A stretch of 13,715 nt of DNA from a virus. Taxonomy: Duplodnaviria; Heunggongvirae; Uroviricota; Caudoviricetes. Each line of letters starts with the position of its first letter. Within the stretch, counting starts at the first letter, position 1. The notes under the pieces are model-generated. The model did not search any database. It saw nothing but the letters and a program-made list of their open reading frames with translations, and was not told the DNA's origin. Of the stretch, positions 2,436-12,973 are shown piece by piece. The DNA lies in the IMG/VR virus record IMGVR_UViG_3300029094_000007. One strand, written 5' to 3'. The position numbers and the translations under genes are program-made.

Positions 2436-3575
2436 TTAACCAAGAATCAGACAACCATGTGCCGGCTTCACTGATGAAACACCCCATGCCAGTCCAACTT
2501 CATAGCGCACCTGGCGATACTGACGATACAGTGCAATCTGGAACGTAATCCCTGAAATCGGGTCCGTAACATTCATTACATCATCAGCATTATCGCCACC
2601 TTCCGGCATTGCCGGAGTACGGGATGCCAGCAGAAACGCGTTGCGATCAAACGCCATATTTGCAGTAAAGGAGCCAAGAACTGTGATTGCAGTATCATCG
2701 GCCAGATCCTGACGCAGTCCGGGCGCTGCAAGAGTAATCAGATTGCTGGTCGCTGCTGCCACAACATACTGATTCGGATCGCCAGCGAACGTAACAATCT
2801 GACCTGCAGAAATACTCCCCGAACCAGTATCAATGGAAATAAGAACATCGCCTTCTTTTTTCTCGCCATTCACGAGATAACCAGTTGCAGCAACCTTTGG
2901 CGCTCGTTTTACACCTGCCGAACTGTGAATATTGAATCCCTCCAGACGCCCCAACACGCCCTCACGCAGTAGCTGTTCAGTGCCGGATTCATTCACTTTA
3001 AACAGTACAGACTGTTTTCCGCGCAAATTAGCAATGGCAGTGGAGCCAAGCACCATCTGCAGATCGGTTGTCGGTGCGCCGTTATCCTCCAGAACCTGAC
3101 GAGCCAGAGCAGCATCAGAAAGATCATCTTTAACACCAAACGGCGTTGTCCCTGCGGTTCCCACGGCGCGGGAAGCACCGAAATACAACGCACCAAGATC
3201 AGCCTCAACCTCGTTTGCAAGGGCGCGAAAAGCCTGCTTGAACTGATCAGCCAGAATGGTGTTGTAAGTCCCTGAAGGGCCAAGAGCCAGTTGTTCTTCA
3301 CCATTCCATTTAACCGGTGCCATTTTGGATTTAGTAATTTTCACATCAACAGTGCCAATATTTTGATCACCGGTATTCGGAGCTGACGGCCCCGGTACGA
3401 TATCTTCGGTTTTCGCCTCAGGCGCAACTGGCGCGGTTACCGTCTGATCTTTTGCTGCGGCGTCAGCTTTTGCGTTTTTTGCTACCGCAGGGATAAAACC
3501 TACCTGCTCACGGGATACAATATCCAGGGCGGTATAAATAGTCGGGATCAACCCGGTCAGGGTATTTCCAGCCAT
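2436..3575 (-). CDS. Phage major capsid protein (380 aa from ATG at 3575; track ORF extends to 3668)
   Basis: Largest structural ORF after scaffold. The ATG at 3575 (MAGNTLTGLIPTIY...) is preceded by AAGGAA; the upstream extension to 3668 would overlap the scaffold gene end. Gly/Thr/Ala-rich composition typical of coat proteins. Family not determined. Confidence 0.65.
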   Translation of the reverse strand: MAGNTLTGLIPTIYTALDIVSREQVGFIPAVAKNAKADAAAKDQTVTAPVAPEAKTEDIVPGPSAPNTGDQNIGTVDVKITKSKMAPVKWNGEEQLALGPSGTYNTILADQFKQAFRALANEVEADLGALYFGASRAVGTAGTTPFGVKDDLSDAALARQVLEDNGAPTTDLQMVLGSTAIANLRGKQSVLFKVNESGTEQLLREGVLGRLEGFNIHSSAGVKRAPKVAATGYLVNGEKKEGDVLISIDTGSGSISAGQIVTFAGDPNQYVVAAATSNLITLAAPGLRQDLADDTAITVLGSFTANMAFDRNAFLLASRTPAMPEGGDNADDVMNVTDPISGITFQIALYRQYRQVRYEVGLAWGVSSVKPAHGCLILG

Positions 3576-3673
3576 AATTAAATATTCCTTAAAAATTTGC
3601 GTAATTGTGAATAGATGGAGTAATGAGCTATCCAGCCCTGACACCAGCACCCATCCGGAAGCTGACAAATGTG

Positions 3674-4438
3674 TTAATCAACAATTGTGATACCGTCTTT
3701 CAATGCGTTTTGCTTACCTGCAACATCCAGTGCATCAAAAGCAGAGCGTTTCATCGTTTTCTGACCAATATCATGCTGTGTCGGACGGGAGCCGCCGCCA
3801 TTGTTGCCACTGGCTTTCAGGATGTAGTCTTTCTGAGGGTAATTTTCGACGAGGAACTCCAGCGCCTCATCAAACTGCGCCAGTTCGCCAGGCTTCGCGC
3901 GGGAATAAATTTTGTTGCCGGAAGCGTCATAAGCAACGATCTTCCCTTCTTCCACTTTGAATGCCTGCCCGAAGCGGGCTTGTAATAAATCTGCCGGGAT
4001 CGCAATTTTATCGGCAATATATTTTGAACCCGCAAAACTACCGCCAATCATAGAATCGTAAAGCTGCGTCTCCAGCATCTGAGAGCGTTGCTTTTCTTCA
4101 TCTAATTGCTGCTGAAAATTTTTCGTAATTTCTGCCTTAACCTGGTCAACCTGTCCCGCATCGATCAGCTTTTTCTGGTCGATTTTTGACAGCATTTCCA
4201 GTGCCTCGATCGCCTTCTTCGGGTCTTCGATAGCGGCAAACTTAGCCAGTTTTTCCTCTGCAGCTTCTTTAGCCAGGCGATGATTTTTTGCCTCGCCATT
4301 AAGCTCTGTAATTTTTTTTATCGCCAGCGGTGCATCGAAGCCGATTTCTTTACCATCGTCGTGCACATAAACTGGCAGGCCAGCAGTATCAATTTCTGCG
4401 TATTGTTTTCCGTTAATCTCGACCGTTTTCAGTTTCAT
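3674..4438 (-). CDS. Phage capsid scaffolding protein (254 aa from ATG at 4438)
   Basis: Track ORF 3674..4510; internal start MKLKTVEINGKQY at 4438 chosen because the upstream extension runs through the terminator hairpin. Highly charged, helix-prone sequence (AKEAAEEKLAKFAAIEDPKKAIEALEMLSKIDQKKL). Sits between head morphogenesis and capsid genes. Confidence 0.5.
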   Translation of the reverse strand: MKLKTVEINGKQYAEIDTAGLPVYVHDDGKEIGFDAPLAIKKITELNGEAKNHRLAKEAAEEKLAKFAAIEDPKKAIEALEMLSKIDQKKLIDAGQVDQVKAEITKNFQQQLDEEKQRSQMLETQLYDSMIGGSFAGSKYIADKIAIPADLLQARFGQAFKVEEGKIVAYDASGNKIYSRAKPGELAQFDEALEFLVENYPQKDYILKASGNNGGGSRPTQHDIGQKTMKRSAFDALDVAGKQNALKDGITIVD

Positions 4439-4495
4439 ATTAGTACCTGGTTTAAGTCTTCCGACAGTTACGCTGCTCACCATCCGGATCGCAGC

Positions 4496-4522
4496 AATAA
4501 AAAAGGCCACCCGAAGGTAGCC
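4496..4522 (-). terminator. Intrinsic-terminator-like hairpin between head morphogenesis and scaffold genes
   Basis: Minus-strand RNA: GGCUACC-UUCG-GGUGGCC (7 bp stem with one G-U pair, UUCG tetraloop) followed by UUUUUUAUU. The plus-strand reading is also followed by a T-run, so it could act in both directions. Confidence 0.5.
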
Positions 4523-4542: not shown

Positions 4543-5658
4543 TTAAATCCCTGCTTTTCTGAATACCTGTGCATCACGCTCACGGAGTTGCTTCAGCGTC
4601 AGCCATTCGCCTTTATCGGTGTAAAATTCATCTGGCGACATACCACCATCCCGAATCAGCTTTGCCCGGGTTTCCCCCACAATCTGTTTTTGTCTGGTGT
4701 AAGGCTGGCGCAAAAACCATTCCCTGTAGGTTGTATCTCCGGCCACCACGCCATCCATGCTGGCCCGCTCAGCCGGGGAAATATCACGAACATCAATACC
4801 CAGTTCCTTCGCTGATTTCAGAATGAACGTTTCCGTTGAGCGGCAGCAGAAATGAATTTTTCCCGGCCCCTGCAAATAAGGCACGCTGTGACCTACAGGT
4901 TTATTATCCAGCGTATATTTGAGGCGATCCCTGATTCGACATTGTGGCGTAGTACGATTATCAAGCGTTGATAACCATTGCTTACCCTTAATCAAATCAT
5001 TATTCGCGCTGGCAAAACTCTCACGGGCAGTAGCAGCAAGATGTCCAACCGCTGTTTTTGCAATGCTGGCCGCATTAGCCCGGCTCATCTGCAATGCACC
5101 ATCCTGAAATCCCTTACTGACATGTCCCCGAATTTTTCTTGCGATCTGCTCATTGGTATCCCCCAGCAAAAAACCCTGACGCACCGTATTTGTTATGCGT
5201 CTGAGCCGATCCGCCTCAAGATCCGAGGCCCACTCACTGAGCAGTCGTCCCTGGAATGGTCGCGCCATTGCAGCGGCGTAAAGTGCATCAGAAGAGATAC
5301 CAACCAGAGGGTGAACATCAGCAACAAAATCAGGTAGCAGAGAATCAAACAGACTTAACTGATAACCAGCCTCATAAATTGCCAGCTCGTTCAGCTCTCC
5401 GGAGAGACTGGTAAACATGCTGTTAATAGCAGCGCGGTTAACCTCTCTGACACTCGCCAGAAGTGACTCCAGGCGCGTAACGGTAAAACTACCAGGATCG
5501 AGGCTGTCCAGTGCTACCAGCAGGCGAGCTGTAAGCTCCGCATCGCTGTCATTCAGTATTTTCACCATTCTGGCAGCCACACCAGTGCTATAGCGGGATA
5601 TCCAGACTGCATGAGCAATTGATTCATCACGCAGCCGTTCATTCACGGTTTGCATCAT
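4543..5658 (-). CDS. Phage head morphogenesis protein, Mu gpF / SPP1 gp7-like (371 aa)
   Basis: Track ORF overlapping the portal gene 3' end. Position after portal and conserved-looking segments (TTPQCR...HFCCRST) match my recollection of the Mu-F-like minor head protein family. Confidence 0.6.
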   Translation of the reverse strand: MMQTVNERLRDESIAHAVWISRYSTGVAARMVKILNDSDAELTARLLVALDSLDPGSFTVTRLESLLASVREVNRAAINSMFTSLSGELNELAIYEAGYQLSLFDSLLPDFVADVHPLVGISSDALYAAAMARPFQGRLLSEWASDLEADRLRRITNTVRQGFLLGDTNEQIARKIRGHVSKGFQDGALQMSRANAASIAKTAVGHLAATARESFASANNDLIKGKQWLSTLDNRTTPQCRIRDRLKYTLDNKPVGHSVPYLQGPGKIHFCCRSTETFILKSAKELGIDVRDISPAERASMDGVVAGDTTYREWFLRQPYTRQKQIVGETRAKLIRDGGMSPDEFYTDKGEWLTLKQLRERDAQVFRKAGI

Positions 5659-7045
5659 TGATTTCCATCAGCATTACACTCTGATTTTTTAATTCATCGA
5701 TCACTTCCTCTGGACGGGAATCCTGATCGATAAATTTCAACGCCTGCAACACCCGAACCGCATCAATCTGACGTATATCACCGCCCTGACGCAATGACTG
5801 AACAGCCAGCGCGGAGGATGAGTCAAACACCTGGGCAGATACATCCAGTTCAGTGCGCACATCCACATTGCCACCGCAACTCTCTCCGCTCCATTCCGCC
5901 ATTATCTGGAGAATATTATCGAGGGCATCTTCGAGGGAGTTCGCCATTGTATAAAGCGGCGAGTGTTCCTGCATCCGCTCTTCATTAGTCTGATCAACAG
6001 ATTTGGTGGATGTATTTTCAGCCCGCAGAAGTTTAGCGCCGGCATGACGCATCTGATTTTCCAGCTTCTCAAGTGATGTTTCGCCAGATTCTATCGCTGC
6101 GCCACTATGTTCAACATATTCGAGGCCATTTTTTGTTCTGTCCTCAAAAATCGTAGCGGTGGATGCACCAACCGTCAGTTCTTCATTCCTGTCCAGCCCG
6201 TAGGCCACCAGCAATGGAACGCGGGCAACATGAAGAATATTGTCCTGCTCGCTCTGGCTTTGCCAGTGCTTGATATTCAGCAAGCCAAGATTAAGCAATG
6301 GCGGTGTACCACGCATAAACCCTGTTTTCTTCGTATACAGTGTTACCAGAGGAATATCATCACGGCTGGTATTCCATGACTCATGAAGCGTCCAGACAGA
6401 TTCGCCATTAGTACCTTCGCTGTGTCGATAAATTTCAACTCGACGGGGCATAATATGGCGGATCTGCTCCACCTTCTTCTGCCCGAAATCATCACCATCA
6501 ATAATGATGACCTCTTTTATACGCAAATCAGTGAGAACAACTTTCCCTTTTTCAACTTTCGATTTCCATCCAATAACCTGGCGTGGATTCAGCATCGTAA
6601 CGTACGGGCGACCACCGGCCGCGTTTTCATCGGCTTTTGTCCGAATCTCGTTCATATCCGTTCGTGGATAGTCCACCAGCGCATGTGCCACACCATATTG
6701 AAATGCGAGACTGAAAAATTGCTGCGCCCACACATCCAGTCGGCTCCCCTCCATGTCGATATTTTCTGCATATTCCCTGATTTTTTCCGGCGTTTCCTCA
6801 CTCAATACTGTCGGCTCTGCAAATATGCGCCCAATATTTTGTTTGATGCTTTCTTCATACACAGGAAGTAGCGTAGCCACAGACAGGCGTTTTTTATAAG
6901 CGTCTTCATCTTCATTAGGCCATTTGGGGAGATAATTTTCCCCCTGCCTGCGCATTTCAAGCGTACCGCCCATCAATGCGTCGTTAATATCCCACGCTTC
7001 CAGCATATCGTTATAGTCGAGGTTGGGTGTTGATATATCAGCCAT
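5639..7045 (-). CDS. Phage portal protein (468 aa)
   Basis: Track ORF starting 3 nt after the large terminase stop. Size and position are canonical for a portal; acidic C-terminal region. Confidence 0.7.
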   Translation of the reverse strand: MADISTPNLDYNDMLEAWDINDALMGGTLEMRRQGENYLPKWPNEDEDAYKKRLSVATLLPVYEESIKQNIGRIFAEPTVLSEETPEKIREYAENIDMEGSRLDVWAQQFFSLAFQYGVAHALVDYPRTDMNEIRTKADENAAGGRPYVTMLNPRQVIGWKSKVEKGKVVLTDLRIKEVIIIDGDDFGQKKVEQIRHIMPRRVEIYRHSEGTNGESVWTLHESWNTSRDDIPLVTLYTKKTGFMRGTPPLLNLGLLNIKHWQSQSEQDNILHVARVPLLVAYGLDRNEELTVGASTATIFEDRTKNGLEYVEHSGAAIESGETSLEKLENQMRHAGAKLLRAENTSTKSVDQTNEERMQEHSPLYTMANSLEDALDNILQIMAEWSGESCGGNVDVRTELDVSAQVFDSSSALAVQSLRQGGDIRQIDAVRVLQALKFIDQDSRPEEVIDELKNQSVMLMEINDANRE

Positions 7046-7047
7046 AA

Positions 7048-8358
7048 TTAAATCCGAAGTGATGTGACTCTTCCGGTCGGTTTGACAATAGGGAATTGCT
7101 TAACGATGAAATAACCTCCGGCATCATTCGGGTGATCATTGCCAGATTTTTTATCAGGCTCCCCCTTATCATCCCAGACCTGTTGCTCCAGAGATTCGGC
7201 ATATACCGGACAACGCTTCACATTAACTTTATAGCGACGCTCACCATTGGCATTGCAGAACATTGCATTCATTGAGTTAACGCGATCTTTTACTGGCGGG
7301 TTCGAGCTGTTCACCACAACGTTAAAACCTGCCTGCTTAAGCTGGGCTATATCCGTCGTACTTGCGTTACTTGATTTTCTGGAATCTCCGGAAGCATCTG
7401 GATAAATATAAATCTCCCTCACTTTCCGGTAATCATTCCCGTCATACAGCCAGAAGCGTTCTTTAATGATGCGGATCATATCCGGCGTATCGTAAGCATT
7501 GATGATTTCAGTTACCGCACATGGAAGCCCCAAACGCAGCACATGGATGATTCCCGCCATCTTTCCAACGTTAAAATCCATCCCAATATAAATCGGCTCC
7601 CCTGGCTGCTCCACTTCTTCGCAATTATTCAGTTTCCGGTCAAACTGATGGTAAACAGTACCACTTGTCAGGTTAGTAAATTGCCCTCGAAGATAGGCTT
7701 TAATCAGCTCTGGAGGGTATGATTCAAGAAGCGAAGGAATGTAATCTGCTGGCAGGTTCTTTTCATTATCGAAAGTAGATGCCTGCACCAGACCATACAG
7801 TGAGGCCAGCTCTGTTTTTTCACGCACGGCTTTAACAAACTGCTCGTAGACAAATTTGAATCCTTCCGGCGTGGTTGTAACGTCAATACCGTTGCGAAGT
7901 CCATCAATCTTATAACGCATACGCGCAATTATCTTGCGCCACGCCGTTCTGGCTTTTTCCTTCGGCAAAATGTCCAGTTCATCCACCAGCGCATTACCAA
8001 TTTTGAAACCGACGATCGTTTGTGGCTTCTCCATCGATCTGCAGATAGTGGTTCCCCGATACTGGCGTCCGTAATAAAAGTGAACCTCTTTATTTCCCTC
8101 ATTAATTTTTACGTTCAATCCCCAGTCAGCAGCAACTTCTTCCACTGTAGGGTAAAAAATATCGCGAATTTGGGGATACGTTGGCGCAAAATATCCCTGA
8201 TTTATACCTGGATGCTCCCAAATCCCCTTGCATATGCCGCCACACCCAACCCATGTTTTGCCCGAGCCAAAACCAGCAATATAGGCTTTAAATTTATGGG
8301 GCATTGAAAGAAATCGCGCCTGAGGCACATTAAGCGTCGGAGAGATCATCTTCATCAC
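7048..8358 (-). CDS. Phage terminase large subunit (436 aa; start may be one of the nearby in-frame ATGs)
   Basis: Walker A-like motif GFGSGKT near the N-terminus and acidic nuclease-type segments (YIYPDASGDS, GMDFNVG) in the C-terminal half. Overlaps the 3' end of the small terminase candidate. Confidence 0.85.
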   Translation of the reverse strand: MMKMISPTLNVPQARFLSMPHKFKAYIAGFGSGKTWVGCGGICKGIWEHPGINQGYFAPTYPQIRDIFYPTVEEVAADWGLNVKINEGNKEVHFYYGRQYRGTTICRSMEKPQTIVGFKIGNALVDELDILPKEKARTAWRKIIARMRYKIDGLRNGIDVTTTPEGFKFVYEQFVKAVREKTELASLYGLVQASTFDNEKNLPADYIPSLLESYPPELIKAYLRGQFTNLTSGTVYHQFDRKLNNCEEVEQPGEPIYIGMDFNVGKMAGIIHVLRLGLPCAVTEIINAYDTPDMIRIIKERFWLYDGNDYRKVREIYIYPDASGDSRKSSNASTTDIAQLKQAGFNVVVNSSNPPVKDRVNSMNAMFCNANGERRYKVNVKRCPVYAESLEQQVWDDKGEPDKKSGNDHPNDAGGYFIVKQFPIVKPTGRVTSLRI

Positions 8359-9424
8359 TCCTTAATCTGGCATCAACCACATTAATATTGATCGCCACAG
8401 GCTGGGGATGTTCATTATCCTCCACCGTTTCGATCTCTTTGCGCAGCTTCTGGTTTTCTATTCTGCGCCGTTCAATTTCCAGTTCCTGTAGCCGCTTATC
8501 TGCACATAATGCCCCGCCAGCAGAAAGCAAACGCAACAATTCACGCCGGGCGGCAGCCTTATCCTCCAGCAGGATCTCAACACCGTATTTTCCGAGCTTT
8601 GACCCTGCATATAATTGCCGCGCATCCCCATCAAGCAGTGTGGTATCAGCCATATAAAGCTGTCCCGTTCCCTCACCGCAGCACTTCGGGCAATCCGGAT
8701 TGGGTATGGCGTTATCAACAAAGCCGAGGCCTCCATATTCCGGCTCGGGTTTACCATCTCTGGAGGCCTGTGCCGCAGCCTTATCGAATTCTGCAATATC
8801 ACGCCACTGGTAGAGATGATTCTCGCCCCAGCAATAACGGCAGTTAACACGGCGAAATTGTGCCAACTGATTGGGGTCGGCCTGGACAATGGCCATCAAC
8901 TGGCTCACCAGTAAATCCAGGTCTGCGGTATAGCGTTTCTGGTACTGATTGCGGAAGTAGCTGATAGCACGATAAACCCTGGCATTTCTAAGCATACGAC
9001 TGGCGTTGCTGTTAGCTGTCGCACCTTGCCCCTCATAACCGGCTAGTCGGTACGCCTCTGTCGGCTTTTTACCCTGAGCAACAAGCATCGCAAACTTAGC
9101 CTGCTGGTCAGAAATGCCGAATTCATCGGGACAGAACGAAAATTCCTCCGCGTCGCCCTCATTCAGGCCCGCATCGAATACTGGCTTTTTTTCCTGAGAT
9201 TTTTCGTTCCGCTTTTGTGCAGTCTGCGCAGATTTTTTCTGCGCACTTTTTTGCGCAGTTTTGCGCATTTCTGTCTGCGCATTTTTCGGAGTTTTTTTGA
9301 TGTAACGACGGGCTGTTGCGTAATTCAGTCCCCTTGCTTCACACCATGCCACCGGAGATATACCGGAGCGGGTGTATTCAGCAATATACTCCTGCTGCAA
9401 CGCCCCCCAGTCCGGTCTGCTCAT
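8330..9424 (-). CDS. Candidate terminase small subunit / DNA-recognition protein, unusually long (364 aa)
   Basis: N-terminal helix-turn-helix-like segment (ISPVAWCEARGLNYATARRYI) as in many small terminases. Followed by a low-complexity AQK-rich linker, a Cys cluster (CRYC ... CPKCC) and a C-terminal charged coiled-coil-like segment. Immediately upstream of, and overlapping, the large terminase gene. Confidence 0.55.
   Translation of the reverse strand: MSRPDWGALQQEYIAEYTRSGISPVAWCEARGLNYATARRYIKKTPKNAQTEMRKTAQKSAQKKSAQTAQKRNEKSQEKKPVFDAGLNEGDAEEFSFCPDEFGISDQQAKFAMLVAQGKKPTEAYRLAGYEGQGATANSNASRMLRNARVYRAISYFRNQYQKRYTADLDLLVSQLMAIVQADPNQLAQFRRVNCRYCWGENHLYQWRDIAEFDKAAAQASRDGKPEPEYGGLGFVDNAIPNPDCPKCCGEGTGQLYMADTTLLDGDARQLYAGSKLGKYGVEILLEDKAAARRELLRLLSAGGALCADKRLQELEIERRRIENQKLRKEIETVEDNEHPQPVAININVVDARLRSDEDDLSDA
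9225..9281. repeat. Five copies of palindromic hexamer TGCGCA, each followed by a T-run, inside the small terminase gene
   Basis: TGCGCA at 9225, 9240, 9252, 9262 and 9276 on the plus strand, each followed by a run of T. On the coding strand this encodes the reiterated AQK peptide. Confidence 0.6.
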
Positions 9425-9427
9425 CAG

Positions 9428-9679
9428 TTAGTCCTGATTTTTATCCACCCTGAGTAGTTCGCGCAGAGCAAAGGCATCCCCTTTTCTGGCAAGCTTAAAC
9501 AATGCCGCTCGTAACTCGGCTTCACCTTTCGCTCTGCCCTTACGGATGGCCGCATAAAAATCTGTCATTGCTTCCCGATTTTCTTTCAGTCGGTTCAGAT
9601 CAACATCCAGAACGTCAGCGATTTGTTGTGCAGTCATCCGGCACGCTGCCAGAGACTCGACTTTCGAATACGGAATCAT
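9428..9679 (-). CDS. Small DNA-binding-like protein (83 aa), possibly terminase-associated
   Basis: Track ORF packed 3 nt from both neighbours. Helix-rich basic sequence (MTAQQIADVLDVDLNRLKE...RKGRAKGEAELRAALFKLARKGD). Function inferred only from position and composition. Confidence 0.4.
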   Translation of the reverse strand: MIPYSKVESLAACRMTAQQIADVLDVDLNRLKENREAMTDFYAAIRKGRAKGEAELRAALFKLARKGDAFALRELLRVDKNQD

Positions 9680-9682
9680 TTG

Positions 9683-10564
9683 TCACCCCATTGATATGCA
9701 GGGTGTCTTCTTCCTGTATTTTTCGTGAAGGATTTTTACTGCAGCGTTGTTCCAGGTGACCTGATGGTGAATGCGTTTATGGCTGGCACCCATCAGTGAG
9801 ATTTTTACGCACGACGGCGCATACATGACGGAGTAAAAACTTTTAACGTAGGTTCCGGAATCCAGATACAGCTCGGTCATTCCGCCGCTGTTTTTCTGCG
9901 TCTGTTTCTGCCCTAACTGGACAGCACCGATCGTCATAAACAATTCACCACAGCGACCGAGATTCGTGTACGTATTCACATCCTCGTTAATGCGCCCCAT
10001 GAATGAGAACGGTCGATCAACCGAACAGATAAAGCTGTTCATTGCCTTGCGTTTCACCCACGAAGCATGGCCGCCATTGTCACCAAGAAAATCCCCGCCC
10101 TGCGACATAGCGATGGAAAGCGCGGGTATTGATTCGTAATACGCCAGCATTTCAGAAAGGATCGCATCCAGTTTCCTTATCGGGAAATAGGCCTGGTCAT
10201 AGTTGCGATCCACCCGAAACTGGAACTCGTGATAATCATCATCGAGCTGAATGAAGTATTTACACCCGACCAGTTTTGCCAGGTCGAAACAGGCATTACG
10301 GGCGTAAAAAATTGAGCGGCGGTCACCAAAATTATCGGCTTCGTCAAAACGACTGGCGATATCGGCTTTGGAAAATACCAGCACCTGTTCACCAAATTCA
10401 GCCATGTACTGATGCCGTGTCTTATCTTCATCATCAACAACGATAAAAATTTTCCCGGTATAGCCAGCACGACGCAACGTCCGGTAAGTCAGAACTTTTT
10501 CCGGTCGTCCGTGAGTCAGAATAAAGGCGCAAAAATCATCACGCATATTCCTCCTCCCCGCCAT
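9683..10564 (-). CDS. Hypothetical protein, possibly GT-A-fold glycosyltransferase-like (293 aa; alternative start at 10546)
   Basis: Track ORF. The second in-frame ATG at 10546 is preceded by GGGAGGAGG and overlaps the ParB-like gene stop (ATGCGTGA). Pattern FCAFILTHGRPE ... IFIVVDDED ... FIQLDDDYHEF resembles the beta1-TxNR, DD and DxD elements of GT2-type enzymes. This is motif-level inference only. Confidence 0.55.
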   Translation of the reverse strand: MAGRRNMRDDFCAFILTHGRPEKVLTYRTLRRAGYTGKIFIVVDDEDKTRHQYMAEFGEQVLVFSKADIASRFDEADNFGDRRSIFYARNACFDLAKLVGCKYFIQLDDDYHEFQFRVDRNYDQAYFPIRKLDAILSEMLAYYESIPALSIAMSQGGDFLGDNGGHASWVKRKAMNSFICSVDRPFSFMGRINEDVNTYTNLGRCGELFMTIGAVQLGQKQTQKNSGGMTELYLDSGTYVKSFYSVMYAPSCVKISLMGASHKRIHHQVTWNNAAVKILHEKYRKKTPCISMG

Positions 10565-11327
10565 GCATGATCTCCACCATGCGCTGCGTCATTCGGACAA
10601 ATCCATTTTCAATAGCCTGCTGATAATCAATGATCACCAGCGCCGACTCCTCGAAAAGGCACTGAATTTCAGCGGGGGCATGAGCGTAATAGTCCGCAAT
10701 TCTGCTGAAATTAAACACCGTGTGACGTTCTGCCGCACACAGGAGGAATTTCTCAATATCAGGATCAAGGGACGCCGAACGTATCCGGCTGATCAGCTCC
10801 TGAGTTTTCGTATCGTCGTACAGTTCACTGATATCCGGTTTACCGCCCGACGGCTCATAAACAGGCGTATCAATTTTCGTCGTATACGGCTCCTCCTTAT
10901 TTCCTATACCGGGCAAAACATCCGTCAACAGTTCATCAATTTCTGTCGGGCCGAAGCCTGTCAGGGAGACATCAAAATCAGCATTGATTAGGACCGACAG
11001 CTCCATCCGCAACAGATCTTCATCCCAGCCAGCATTCATCGGTAGGCGATTATCTGCCAAGCGGTACGCCTTTTTCTGCTCATCCGTCAGGCCAGACAGA
11101 ACAATGACCGGAACAGAATCCATTTTGAGCATTTCAGCCGCCATAACACGACCGTGACCCGCAATAATTTCGCCCTTTTCGTCAATCAGCACCGGATTAG
11201 TCCAGCCGAATTGCTTAATACTTTCTACCAGTTGTGCCACCTGCTCAGTACTGTGCGTCCTGGCGTTGTGCGCATACGGTGACAATTCTTGTAATGGGCG
11301 ATAGACTATCTTTAATTTCTCGCTCAT
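10539..11327 (-). CDS. ParB-like nuclease domain (ParB/Srx N-terminal fold) protein (262 aa)
   Basis: N-terminal region PLQELSPYAHNARTHSTEQVAQLVESIKQFGWTNPVLID...IIAGHGRVMAA matches the ParB/sulfiredoxin-type signature (the G-H-R segment). C-terminal half is acidic. AAGG precedes the ATG. Confidence 0.7.
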   Translation of the reverse strand: MSEKLKIVYRPLQELSPYAHNARTHSTEQVAQLVESIKQFGWTNPVLIDEKGEIIAGHGRVMAAEMLKMDSVPVIVLSGLTDEQKKAYRLADNRLPMNAGWDEDLLRMELSVLINADFDVSLTGFGPTEIDELLTDVLPGIGNKEEPYTTKIDTPVYEPSGGKPDISELYDDTKTQELISRIRSASLDPDIEKFLLCAAERHTVFNFSRIADYYAHAPAEIQCLFEESALVIIDYQQAIENGFVRMTQRMVEIMHGGEEEYA

Positions 11328-11464: not shown

Positions 11465-12922
11465 TTAGGAGCGCCAAAAAAAAACTGAAAACAATATAAT
11501 AACAGGATAAATTTCAAGGCGACCAAGAATCATAGCTATGCACATTAAATATTTTGCAATGTCATTAAGCACTCCGAATGACGATGCAGTAGCCCCAAAA
11601 CCTAATCCCATATTATTAATACATGCAGCCACTGTTGCAAATGATGTAAGAAAATCATATCCCATACCATTTAACACCAGTATAAAAAACACCGTGAAGA
11701 GAGTATAAAGAAAAAAGAAACTCCATACAGACCTCATTACACGATCTGTAACTATCTTCCCTCCTACATTTACACTCAACAACGCTCTGGGATGAGAAAG
11801 CTGATTTATCTCGTGTTTGCTTTGTTTGAAAAGTATAAGAAATCGAAGTGACTTAATTCCACCACAAGTTGAACCTATACATCCCCCAAAGAAACTTGAC
11901 AACAGCAAAAACACTATCGTGTGCGTGGGCCAGTTTGCATAATCTTGCGTAGCTAAACCATTATCAGTGAGCATGGAGCTGGCAAGAAAAAACGAATGAA
12001 TAAAACTTCCATGCAAGTCATACATACCTATATGCCAGACCTGGAAAGAGGTAACAATGACCACCACTAAGGCTATTAACAGAAAGAAACGAAGTTCAAT
12101 ATCTCTGATTAAAGGTTTTATCGTTTTTCTGCTAATAACAATATACCAAAGAGTAAAGTTGAAAGCCGATAGCAGGGAAAAAGCACCAGCCACCAGCTCA
12201 ACCAAATAGTTATTAAAATATCCGATACTCTCGCTATGAGTTGAGAAACCACCAAGCGAAACTGTGGAAATCCCGTGACAAATAGCATCAAACAAAGGCA
12301 TTCCTGCAAGTCTATAACAGACAATACAAGCAATACCTAATAAAGAATAAGTTATCCACAGTGTCCGTGACGTATCGGCCAGGCGGGGAGTGAGTTTGTC
12401 ATCCTTAAATGGCCCCGGCATTTCTGACTGATAAAGCTTTGCACCACCAATACCCAATAATGGCAATACTGCAACCGCCAGAACAATAACTCCTAAACCA
12501 CCTATAAAATTTAACTGTGACCGATAGTACAAATATGCCCGAGGTAATGAACTAACATCATCAATTACAGTTGCTCCTGTTGTTGTTATTCCAGAAACCC
12601 CTTCAAACAGAGCATCAATGAACGTTAAATTAAGTTCTGAGTCAATCCATAAAGGGAATGCACTAATAACAGAAAACAAAATCCAAAACATTACAATTAT
12701 AATAAACCCATCACGGGTACGTAATTGAATGCCAGATTTCTTAGTTGTATACCACGCTCCGCCACCAATGCAAAAAAATATAACGAAAGTTATAAAGAAA
12801 ACGAACAGGCTTTTTTCTTTATAAAACAATGCTACAACCATTGGTGGCAACATTGAAAGACTATAGAGCCAAACCAGGAACCCACACATATGAGTAACAA
12901 CTCTTACATGAGATGTATTCAT
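11465..12922 (-). CDS. trkG: Trk-system potassium uptake protein TrkG (485 aa)
   Basis: The translation (MNTSHVRVVTHMCGFLVWLYS ... ILFSVFFWRS) matches my recollection of E. coli TrkG essentially throughout. Multi-pass membrane protein. The track ORF begins at a TTG six codons upstream; the ATG at 12922 gives the expected length. The gene is visibly more AT-rich than its neighbours. Confidence 0.9.
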   Translation of the reverse strand: MNTSHVRVVTHMCGFLVWLYSLSMLPPMVVALFYKEKSLFVFFITFVIFFCIGGGAWYTTKKSGIQLRTRDGFIIIVMFWILFSVISAFPLWIDSELNLTFIDALFEGVSGITTTGATVIDDVSSLPRAYLYYRSQLNFIGGLGVIVLAVAVLPLLGIGGAKLYQSEMPGPFKDDKLTPRLADTSRTLWITYSLLGIACIVCYRLAGMPLFDAICHGISTVSLGGFSTHSESIGYFNNYLVELVAGAFSLLSAFNFTLWYIVISRKTIKPLIRDIELRFFLLIALVVVIVTSFQVWHIGMYDLHGSFIHSFFLASSMLTDNGLATQDYANWPTHTIVFLLLSSFFGGCIGSTCGGIKSLRFLILFKQSKHEINQLSHPRALLSVNVGGKIVTDRVMRSVWSFFFLYTLFTVFFILVLNGMGYDFLTSFATVAACINNMGLGFGATASSFGVLNDIAKYLMCIAMILGRLEIYPVIILFSVFFWRS

Positions 12923-12939
12923 ATCTAAATATTCTTTCA

Positions 12940-12973
12940 ATTATAACCACCTTGCTGCAATATTATGATTATA
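12940..12973 (-). promoter_or_regulatory. AT-rich putative trkG promoter region with two TATAAT hexamers
   Basis: On the minus strand, exact TATAAT hexamers lie at 12940-12945 and 12968-12973, just upstream of the trkG ATG. No convincing -35 element found, so this is tentative. Confidence 0.3.

Follow-up and report, generated by a model that had tools for sequence, protein, structure and literature searches.

What is a cluster of identical hexamers doing inside the coding sequence of a phage small terminase gene? The question arises at terS in a 13,715-nucleotide stretch of viral DNA (IMG/VR record IMGVR_UViG_3300029094_000007; the whole stretch is called the window hereafter), which represents the late region of a Rac-like Escherichia coli prophage, with all listed genes on the minus strand. 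Close to the start of this gene lies a series of TGCGCA words, for which an earlier note on this DNA had proposed a pac site while allowing that the signal could be purely protein-driven. Comparison of the locus with its relatives indicates that the array is probably a DNA site recognised by the phage's own small terminase subunit (TerS), carried within the gene for that very protein, and the hexamers are most likely the sites that an N-terminal helix-turn-helix (HTH) domain of TerS reads to select phage DNA for packaging. The array would then amount to a pac site or, should the phage form cohesive ends, to a cosB-like one.

The five TGCGCA copies, each with a T-run, that the earlier note had placed within about 60 bp were confirmed at 9225-9281, and their location inside the small terminase gene was borne out by Pfam Terminase_2 and PHROG 51 matches for the frame at 8330-9424, which is labelled terminase small subunit in phage records too. 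A T-run follows each hexamer on the plus strand, and an A-run precedes each on the coding strand, where the array reads AAAAA-TGCGCA-GACAGAAA-TGCGCA-AAAC-TGCGCA-AAAAAG-TGCGCA-GAAAAAATC-TGCGCA-GAC-TGCACA. The coding-strand consensus in the window is about AAAC-TGCGCA-AA, with A-runs flanking each copy; these runs may be lysine codons, part of an extended site of that form or bending elements. The array forms one block, 143-209 nt into terS (TerS amino acids (aa) 48-67), and encodes the peptide N-A-Q-T-E-M-R-K-T-A-Q-K-S-A-Q-K-K-S-A-Q-T-A-Q. Four of the five exact hexamers are read xxT GCG CAx (Asn/Thr/Ser-Ala-Gln), and the one at 9262-9267, second on the coding strand, is read in another frame as ATG CGC AAA (Met-Arg-Lys). 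In several variants from E. coli, the sixth copy, degenerate here (9216-9221), is an unbroken TGCGCA. The cluster accounts for 5 of the 10 TGCGCA copies of the window, and when the window was simulated 2000 times with a first-order Markov model, no 57-bp span came to have more than three copies. It is unique there, a search of the window at up to one mismatch having found no second TGCGCA cluster, and it is also the sole cluster, at the same place, in the related 38.7-kb prophage record ON470614.

The array is kept by selection on DNA, independently of the reading frame, and not by selection on the protein. When synonymous codons for the unchanged linker peptide were redrawn at the frequencies of terS, terL and the portal gene, the average number of TGCGCA copies came to 0.2-0.7 versus 4-6 observed, across the window and seven other lineages. 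The observed count was reached in 0 of 20,000 resamplings for the window and six of these lineages, with p = 7e-4 for the other (L006), and an unbiased version of the test, which takes whichever 6-mer is commonest, gave p = 0.0003-0.03 in most lineages. The comparison of synonymous sites among homologues that the earlier note had suggested was also run, and the hexamers persist while peptide, spacing and frame change, the reverse of the outcome that the note had named as refuting its proposal. Array-bearing relatives, which for this comparison of peptides and spacers were picked by protein similarity alone, keep 4-7 TGCGCA copies right after the N-terminal domain despite different linker peptides and spacers; the Serratia, Superficieibacter and Buttiauxella proteins share 52-55% identity with the TerS of the window, those of Klebsiella prophages share 38%, and Aeromonas phiARM81mr matches at 40%, restricted to the N-terminus. 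Relatives at 40-55% identity retain 3-9 hexamers in all. The four Buttiauxella copies are read S-A-Q, T-A-Q, M-R-N and N-C-A and so use all three frames, and 63 hexamers from 12 lineages divide into 49 read xxT GCG CAx, 12 read xTG CGC Axx and 2 read TGC GCA. In these 12 lineages the copies mostly start 9, 10, 12, 14 or 15 bp apart, and the position directly after the hexamer (+1) is A in 42 of 63 cases. Variants within E. coli have 4-6 intact copies, with single slots reading tgtgca, tgcgcg, tgcgta or tacgca. New copies seem to arise via short tandem duplication, the 9-bp unit GACTGCGCA being present three times in tandem in L078.

The word found in the array tracks the N-terminal HTH of the protein. 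A predicted recognition helix with ARRY or ARRH was accompanied by TGCGCA in 107 of 108 distinct sequences, the sole exception being a truncated remnant of 83 aa that has an intact copy next to it, and helices with AKRY were accompanied by TGCGAA(T) in 6 of 6, among them RothC, PSTCR3, Yersinia vB_YenM_29.18, L103 and the Pasteurella phage Pmp11. The last of these carries nine TGCGAA copies, read mainly as Cys-Glu (N-C-E-T-N-C-E-S-N-C-E-T). The same split was found at the peptide level in a sample chosen by HTH profile only: 85 ARRY/ARRH tails were rich in Ala-Gln or Ala-His and none in Ala-Asn, and 16 AKRY tails were rich in Ala-Asn and none in Ala-Gln, excluding 9 ties and 5 tails too short to score. 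The protein search with this profile gave short N-terminal fragments only, which served as this peptide-level proxy and for the alignment behind the domain model. Where a different HTH sits on the same Terminase_2 body (about 54% identity), the word is different as well, being GGGGCA(A)n followed by inverted GCCCC in L007, L097 and L099 and GGTTCGC followed by inverted GCGAACC in L181. Conversely, the class A HTH, to which that of the window belongs, is found on bodies without detectable similarity to the window's in RothC (246 aa), Pmp11 (239 aa) and phiARM81mr (290 aa), and arrays accompany it; PSTCR3 likewise combines the same HTH with an unrelated body and the same word family. Relatives from Acinetobacter, Collimonas and Moraxellaceae that lack the extra N-terminal HTH and linker have no array. 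A reverse search was made for viral-contig stretches with three TGCGCA copies 9-16 bp apart, and at least 79 of 120 such stretches lie directly after a class A HTH in an intact open reading frame (ORF), with a few more after other TerS-type HTHs. Because the hexamers are kept as peptide and frame change, at counts that synonymous resampling does not reproduce, and because the word covaries with the HTH, the candidate pac site of the earlier note is best supported in the form of a putative terminase recognition site.

The structural predictions are compatible with a small reader domain on a flexible tether. An AlphaFold model of the N-terminal domain, built on a 121-sequence alignment, has a predicted local distance difference test score (pLDDT) of 77-91 over aa 1-40, with helices at 6-20, 24-31 and 35-38. 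A search with a profile of this domain gave a match to IstA, the transposase of IS21 (8q4d, 8b4h), in its N-terminal HTH with E = 0.0015, placing T-A-R-R-Y-I-K-K opposite the IstA helix T-V-R-K-Y-I-H-S, and homologous N-termini of other classes match Pfam HTH_psq. Foldseek searches with the N-terminal model returned mostly HTH domains as top matches, none of them significant (E about 1 or more), and a PDB sequence search with TerS and TerL gave no usable relatives. In the full-length TerS model, linker aa 46-94 have pLDDT <50; this model has low confidence (mean pLDDT 48, shallow alignment) and was therefore used for domain boundaries only. The Terminase_2 domain also carries a zinc-ribbon-like CxxC...CxxC insertion (C195, C198, C245 and C248; NCRYCWGE ... 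NPDCPKCCGEG; 8681-8842), which is kept out to the Acinetobacter, Collimonas and Moraxellaceae homologues without the N-terminal HTH.

Taken together, these features suggest how recognition might work. The predicted HTH (aa 1-45) is joined by a basic linker of about 50 residues, predicted to be disordered, to the Terminase_2 body, and the DNA encoding this linker bears 4-9 copies of the putative cognate 6-7 bp word of the HTH, 7-16 bp apart; in the window the cognate word would be TGCGCA, often TGCGCAA. Each HTH would bind one word, with R39 reading the C:G pair at position 5, and the flexible basic tether would let several HTHs of one TerS oligomer engage sites at irregular distances of 7-16 bp. 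The resulting multivalent TerS complex, presumably an oligomeric ring, would mark phage DNA, recruit TerL and start packaging. Since a stretch of about 200 bp contains both HTH and sites, the two could be passed jointly, as a specificity cassette, from one TerS body to an unrelated one. On balance we lean, if narrowly, towards a self-contained and mobile packaging-specificity cassette, composed of an HTH and its own word array in the tether-coding DNA, that is swapped between unrelated TerS bodies; under its code, TGCGCA would belong to Arg39 and TGCGAA to Lys39, with GGGGCA or GGTTCGC for other helices, and the linker peptide would largely be a passenger of the DNA signal.

Other explanations of the array have to be set against recognition by TerS. 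The linker might need an Ala-Gln-Lys-rich basic peptide, with the hexamers a by-product of that peptide and of codon usage, and it is true that four of the five window hexamers encode x-Ala-Gln, that the A-runs encode Lys and that the linker is basic in all relatives. However, the same peptide, when resampled, yields far fewer hexamers than are observed, the word is read in three frames (including as Met/Leu/Val-Arg and Cys-Ala, and as Cys-Glu for TGCGAA), and the linker peptides of relatives are unconserved whereas the word is conserved; a purely protein-driven signal is rejected as extremely improbable. Neutral concerted evolution, in which a slippage-prone, microsatellite-like repeat without function is homogenised by duplication or gene conversion, would accommodate the copy numbers of 4-6 in E. 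coli, the tandem triplication in L078 and the many database ORFs frameshifted in A-runs. It is nonetheless quite unlikely, as the spacers around an unchanging hexamer differ both in length and in sequence, arrays are still found where protein identity is 40-55% and on unrelated TerS bodies, and the word changes with the recognition helix and no array is found where the HTH is absent.

An HTH with sites inside its own gene could also serve regulation, controlling transcription or translation of terS or the late operon, or acting as a switch between expression and packaging of the kind proposed for SPP1-like TerS (PMC4737164), with the array not being a packaging site. Against this, the HTH in relatives without exception forms one protein with a terminase body, whose gene immediately precedes that of TerL, and the phage needs a TerS recognition site, for which no other candidate cluster was found in the window or in the 38.7-kb relative. 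Regulation in place of packaging appears unlikely, and the two roles are not mutually exclusive. Finally, the reader of the array could be another protein, such as the 83-aa product of the ORF upstream of terS, some protein of the host or, since GCGC occurs within TGCGCA, a restriction-modification enzyme. The 83-aa ORF has a match to part of phrog_309 'terminase small subunit', and genes for a ParB-like protein and a glycosyltransferase are nearby. The 83-aa protein was rejected as the reader since it does not covary with the word: it adjoins TerS genes of different HTH and word classes in nearly unchanged form and is missing from L005, L006, L103 and L007, all of which bear arrays. A host or restriction-modification reader, in turn, would not lead one to expect a word that changes along with the HTH helix or a constant place of the array behind the HTH, and another reader of any of these kinds is very unlikely.

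Several observations weigh against recognition of the array by the TerS HTH, or at least temper it. The class A HTH assignment comes with weak scores in both the profile and the Foldseek comparisons, and SF6/SPP1 TerS, the best-studied Terminase_2 representatives, bind DNA weakly and without specificity (PMC4737164). Because HTH and array are adjacent, co-inheritance could account for some of the covariation, and the switch from R with TGCGCA to K with TGCGAA may represent just one or two evolutionary events. Class C, known from the single locus L101 with CCGTCC/GGACGG words, is suggestive by eye and, not being significant alone (p = 0.33), was not counted as evidence. Individual hexamers are often broken in E. 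coli variants, so that no single copy is essential, a pattern that fits a redundant array. Published assignments also disagree on the packaging class of the TerL clade. The nearest characterised relatives of TerL are found in Kagunavirus (51%) and Jersey-like phages (43%), and one paper assigns the clade 3' cos ends from a tree and another assigns headful packaging by PhageTerm; as these calls contradict each other, the array could be pac or cosB-like. Records of related phages are in prophage order or opened arbitrarily, and a literature search for end-mapping of related phages found none.

In having several short hexamers within the coding region for the small packaging subunit, the locus recalls pac of phage P1. 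The P1 hexamers are TGATCA/G, with Dam GATC sites gating cleavage, and form two clusters (4 + 3) that flank the cut, with an IHF site. In work attributed to Sternberg and Coulby and to Skorupski et al., this array is said to lie inside pacA and to be read by the terminase at several copies. Of the analogy with P1 drawn in the earlier note, the hexamer array inside the small-subunit gene stands, and the finer organisation does not carry over: here there is a single cluster, located in a linker behind a dedicated HTH and covarying with it, and 9216-9281 contains no GATC site, which rules out P1-like Dam regulation.

A closer parallel for the reader is lambda cosB, where the small terminase also uses an N-terminal HTH (the winged HTH of gpNu1) to read repeated sites that adjoin the terminase genes, and in lambda-like phages a different recognition helix reportedly brings a different specificity. 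The three R-sites of lambda, of about 16 bp each, however, lie upstream of Nu1 and need IHF, whereas the sites described here are inside the gene, and lambda, a cos phage, has TerS and TerL proteins from other families. The placement of sites is matched by lambda O, whose N-terminal DNA-binding domain has its sites, the ori iterons, within the DNA encoding its own inter-domain linker. Domain and sites travel together in that case too, but lambda O acts in replication initiation, not packaging, and its iterons are 19-bp inverted repeats. P22 also has its recognition site inside terS, although as a single site and not an array and with a different TerS fold, and we know of no N-terminal reader domain in P22 that covaries with repeats. 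The P22 pac is a single 22-bp asymmetric site inside gene 3 (PMC9611059), and pac sites in or beside terS are described for both P22 and SPP1 (PMC9611059, PMC4737164). SPP1/SF6 have a TerS body of the same family, PF03592, and direct repeats at the 5' region of their terS have been proposed as TerS sites under a multivalent ring-of-HTH model; these repeats (pacL, pacC and pacR, with box A/B/C) span promoters and the gene start and are poorly conserved in SPP1 versus SF6 (PMC4737164). The present arrays differ in the extra N-terminal HTH and in consisting of exact repeats in one block inside linker-coding DNA that covary with the helix. A literature search for a TGCGCA/TGCGAA pac site, array or cassette found no description.

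Some further loci depart from the usual arrangement of HTH, array and body. Apparent cases of an HTH without an array (L327, L387 and L388) are truncated or split genes and were not regarded as counterexamples. In two of these, on unrelated contigs (L387:2501-2716 and L388:2501-2728), the TerS frame breaks off directly behind RRYIKK at the common word TATAGGGCAGG and foreign DNA follows, with a separate 190-aa Terminase_2 ORF and TerL after the break in L388; TATAGGGCAGG, at the boundary of HTH and array, may mark a recurrent insertion or recombination point. TGCGCA arrays also occur after a TerS N-terminus of the AG.LS...IA..Y type in L338 and L355, where the word is read Leu/Val-Arg, after a different HTH in L383 and inside the gene for a winged-helix protein, which may be a replication organiser, in L364. 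The terS of Rac-SA53 (L265; KU052037 24713-25741), annotated as a gpO-terS deletion fusion, lacks the HTH, retains only two intact hexamers and lies directly downstream of heat-labile enterotoxin IIa genes. Among database TerS ORFs, very many shift frame inside the A-runs of the array or are cut short there (P0014, P0023, P0027, P0030, P0059-P0065 and P0121-P0240), which may reflect homopolymer sequencing errors, decay or A-run slippage. Frameshifted linker variants such as KKLRKMRRQKCAKLRKK retain hexamers and, as they may be homopolymer errors, were not used as evidence.

Table 1. Coordinates of the array, of terS and its parts, and of neighbouring genes in the window.
Feature	Coordinates	Strand	Remarks
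Small terminase gene terS (TerS, 364 aa)	8330..9424	-	PF03592 match aa 122-316 (E = 1.5e-8), phrog_51
N-terminal three-helix HTH domain, aa 1-45, proposed hexamer reader	9290..9424	-	AlphaFold model, profile match
Predicted recognition helix Y35-A-T-A-R39-R-Y-I-K-K44	9293..9322	-	R39 is Lys in TGCGAA-type relatives
Basic linker, predicted disordered, aa 46-98	9131..9289	-	coding DNA bears the array
Terminase_2 body, Pfam match aa 122-316	8477..9061	-	with CxxC...CxxC insertion
Hexamer array	9216..9281	-	five exact TGCGCA and one degenerate copy, starts 9-15 bp apart
Exact TGCGCA copies	9225-9230, 9240-9245, 9252-9257, 9262-9267, 9276-9281		plus-strand coordinates
Sixth copy, one mismatch	9216-9221		TGTGCA on plus strand, TGCACA on coding strand
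Large terminase TerL (Terminase_6N + 6C)	7048..8358	-	overlaps terS end
P22-like coat	2436-3668	-	
Scaffold	3674-4510	-	
MuF-like protein	4543-5658	-	labelled NAD+-asparagine ADP-ribosyltransferase in ON470614
Portal	5639-7045	-	
83-aa ORF	9428-9679	-	matches middle of phrog_309 'terminase small subunit', E = 8e-23
TAGT-type glycosyltransferase	9683-10564	-	PF20691 (TET-associated type), phrog_842 'beta-glucosyl-HMC-alpha-glucosyltransferase'
ParB-like protein	10539-11327	-	ParB_N domain, phrog_620
trkG moron	11465-12940	-	between lysis and packaging genes; potassium transporter

Of 5426 complete genomes of E. coli, 883 (about 16%) carry the 5' part of terS, and the sequence of strain 14EC029 (NZ_CP024141) is 100% identical to the window over 9131-9424. 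Between the trkG moron and terS, the genes for the ParB_N-domain protein and the glycosyltransferase overlap (Table 1), and they may form a DNA-modification pair; no TET/JBP gene is present in the window.

How pac-type small terminases choose viral DNA is an unresolved matter. A 2022 review describes binding of TerS to pac as weak, non-specific or unproven in P22, Sf6, SF6, SPP1 and P74-26 and sequence specificity as unexplained by current models (PMC9611059). The TerS family described here offers a testable case of sequence-specific recognition with a clear prediction, namely that a defined reader domain recognises a defined word of 6-7 bp, present in 4-9 copies, and that specificity switches by one residue and one base pair. 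The array is, in addition, a clean example of a coding region whose amino acid sequence is dictated by an overlapping DNA signal. If the proposed recognition is correct, multivalent, sequence-specific capture by a TerS ring would be directly testable, and the packaging specificity of a common enterobacterial prophage group would be readable from sequence, which bears on the prediction of transduction and on hijacking by satellites.

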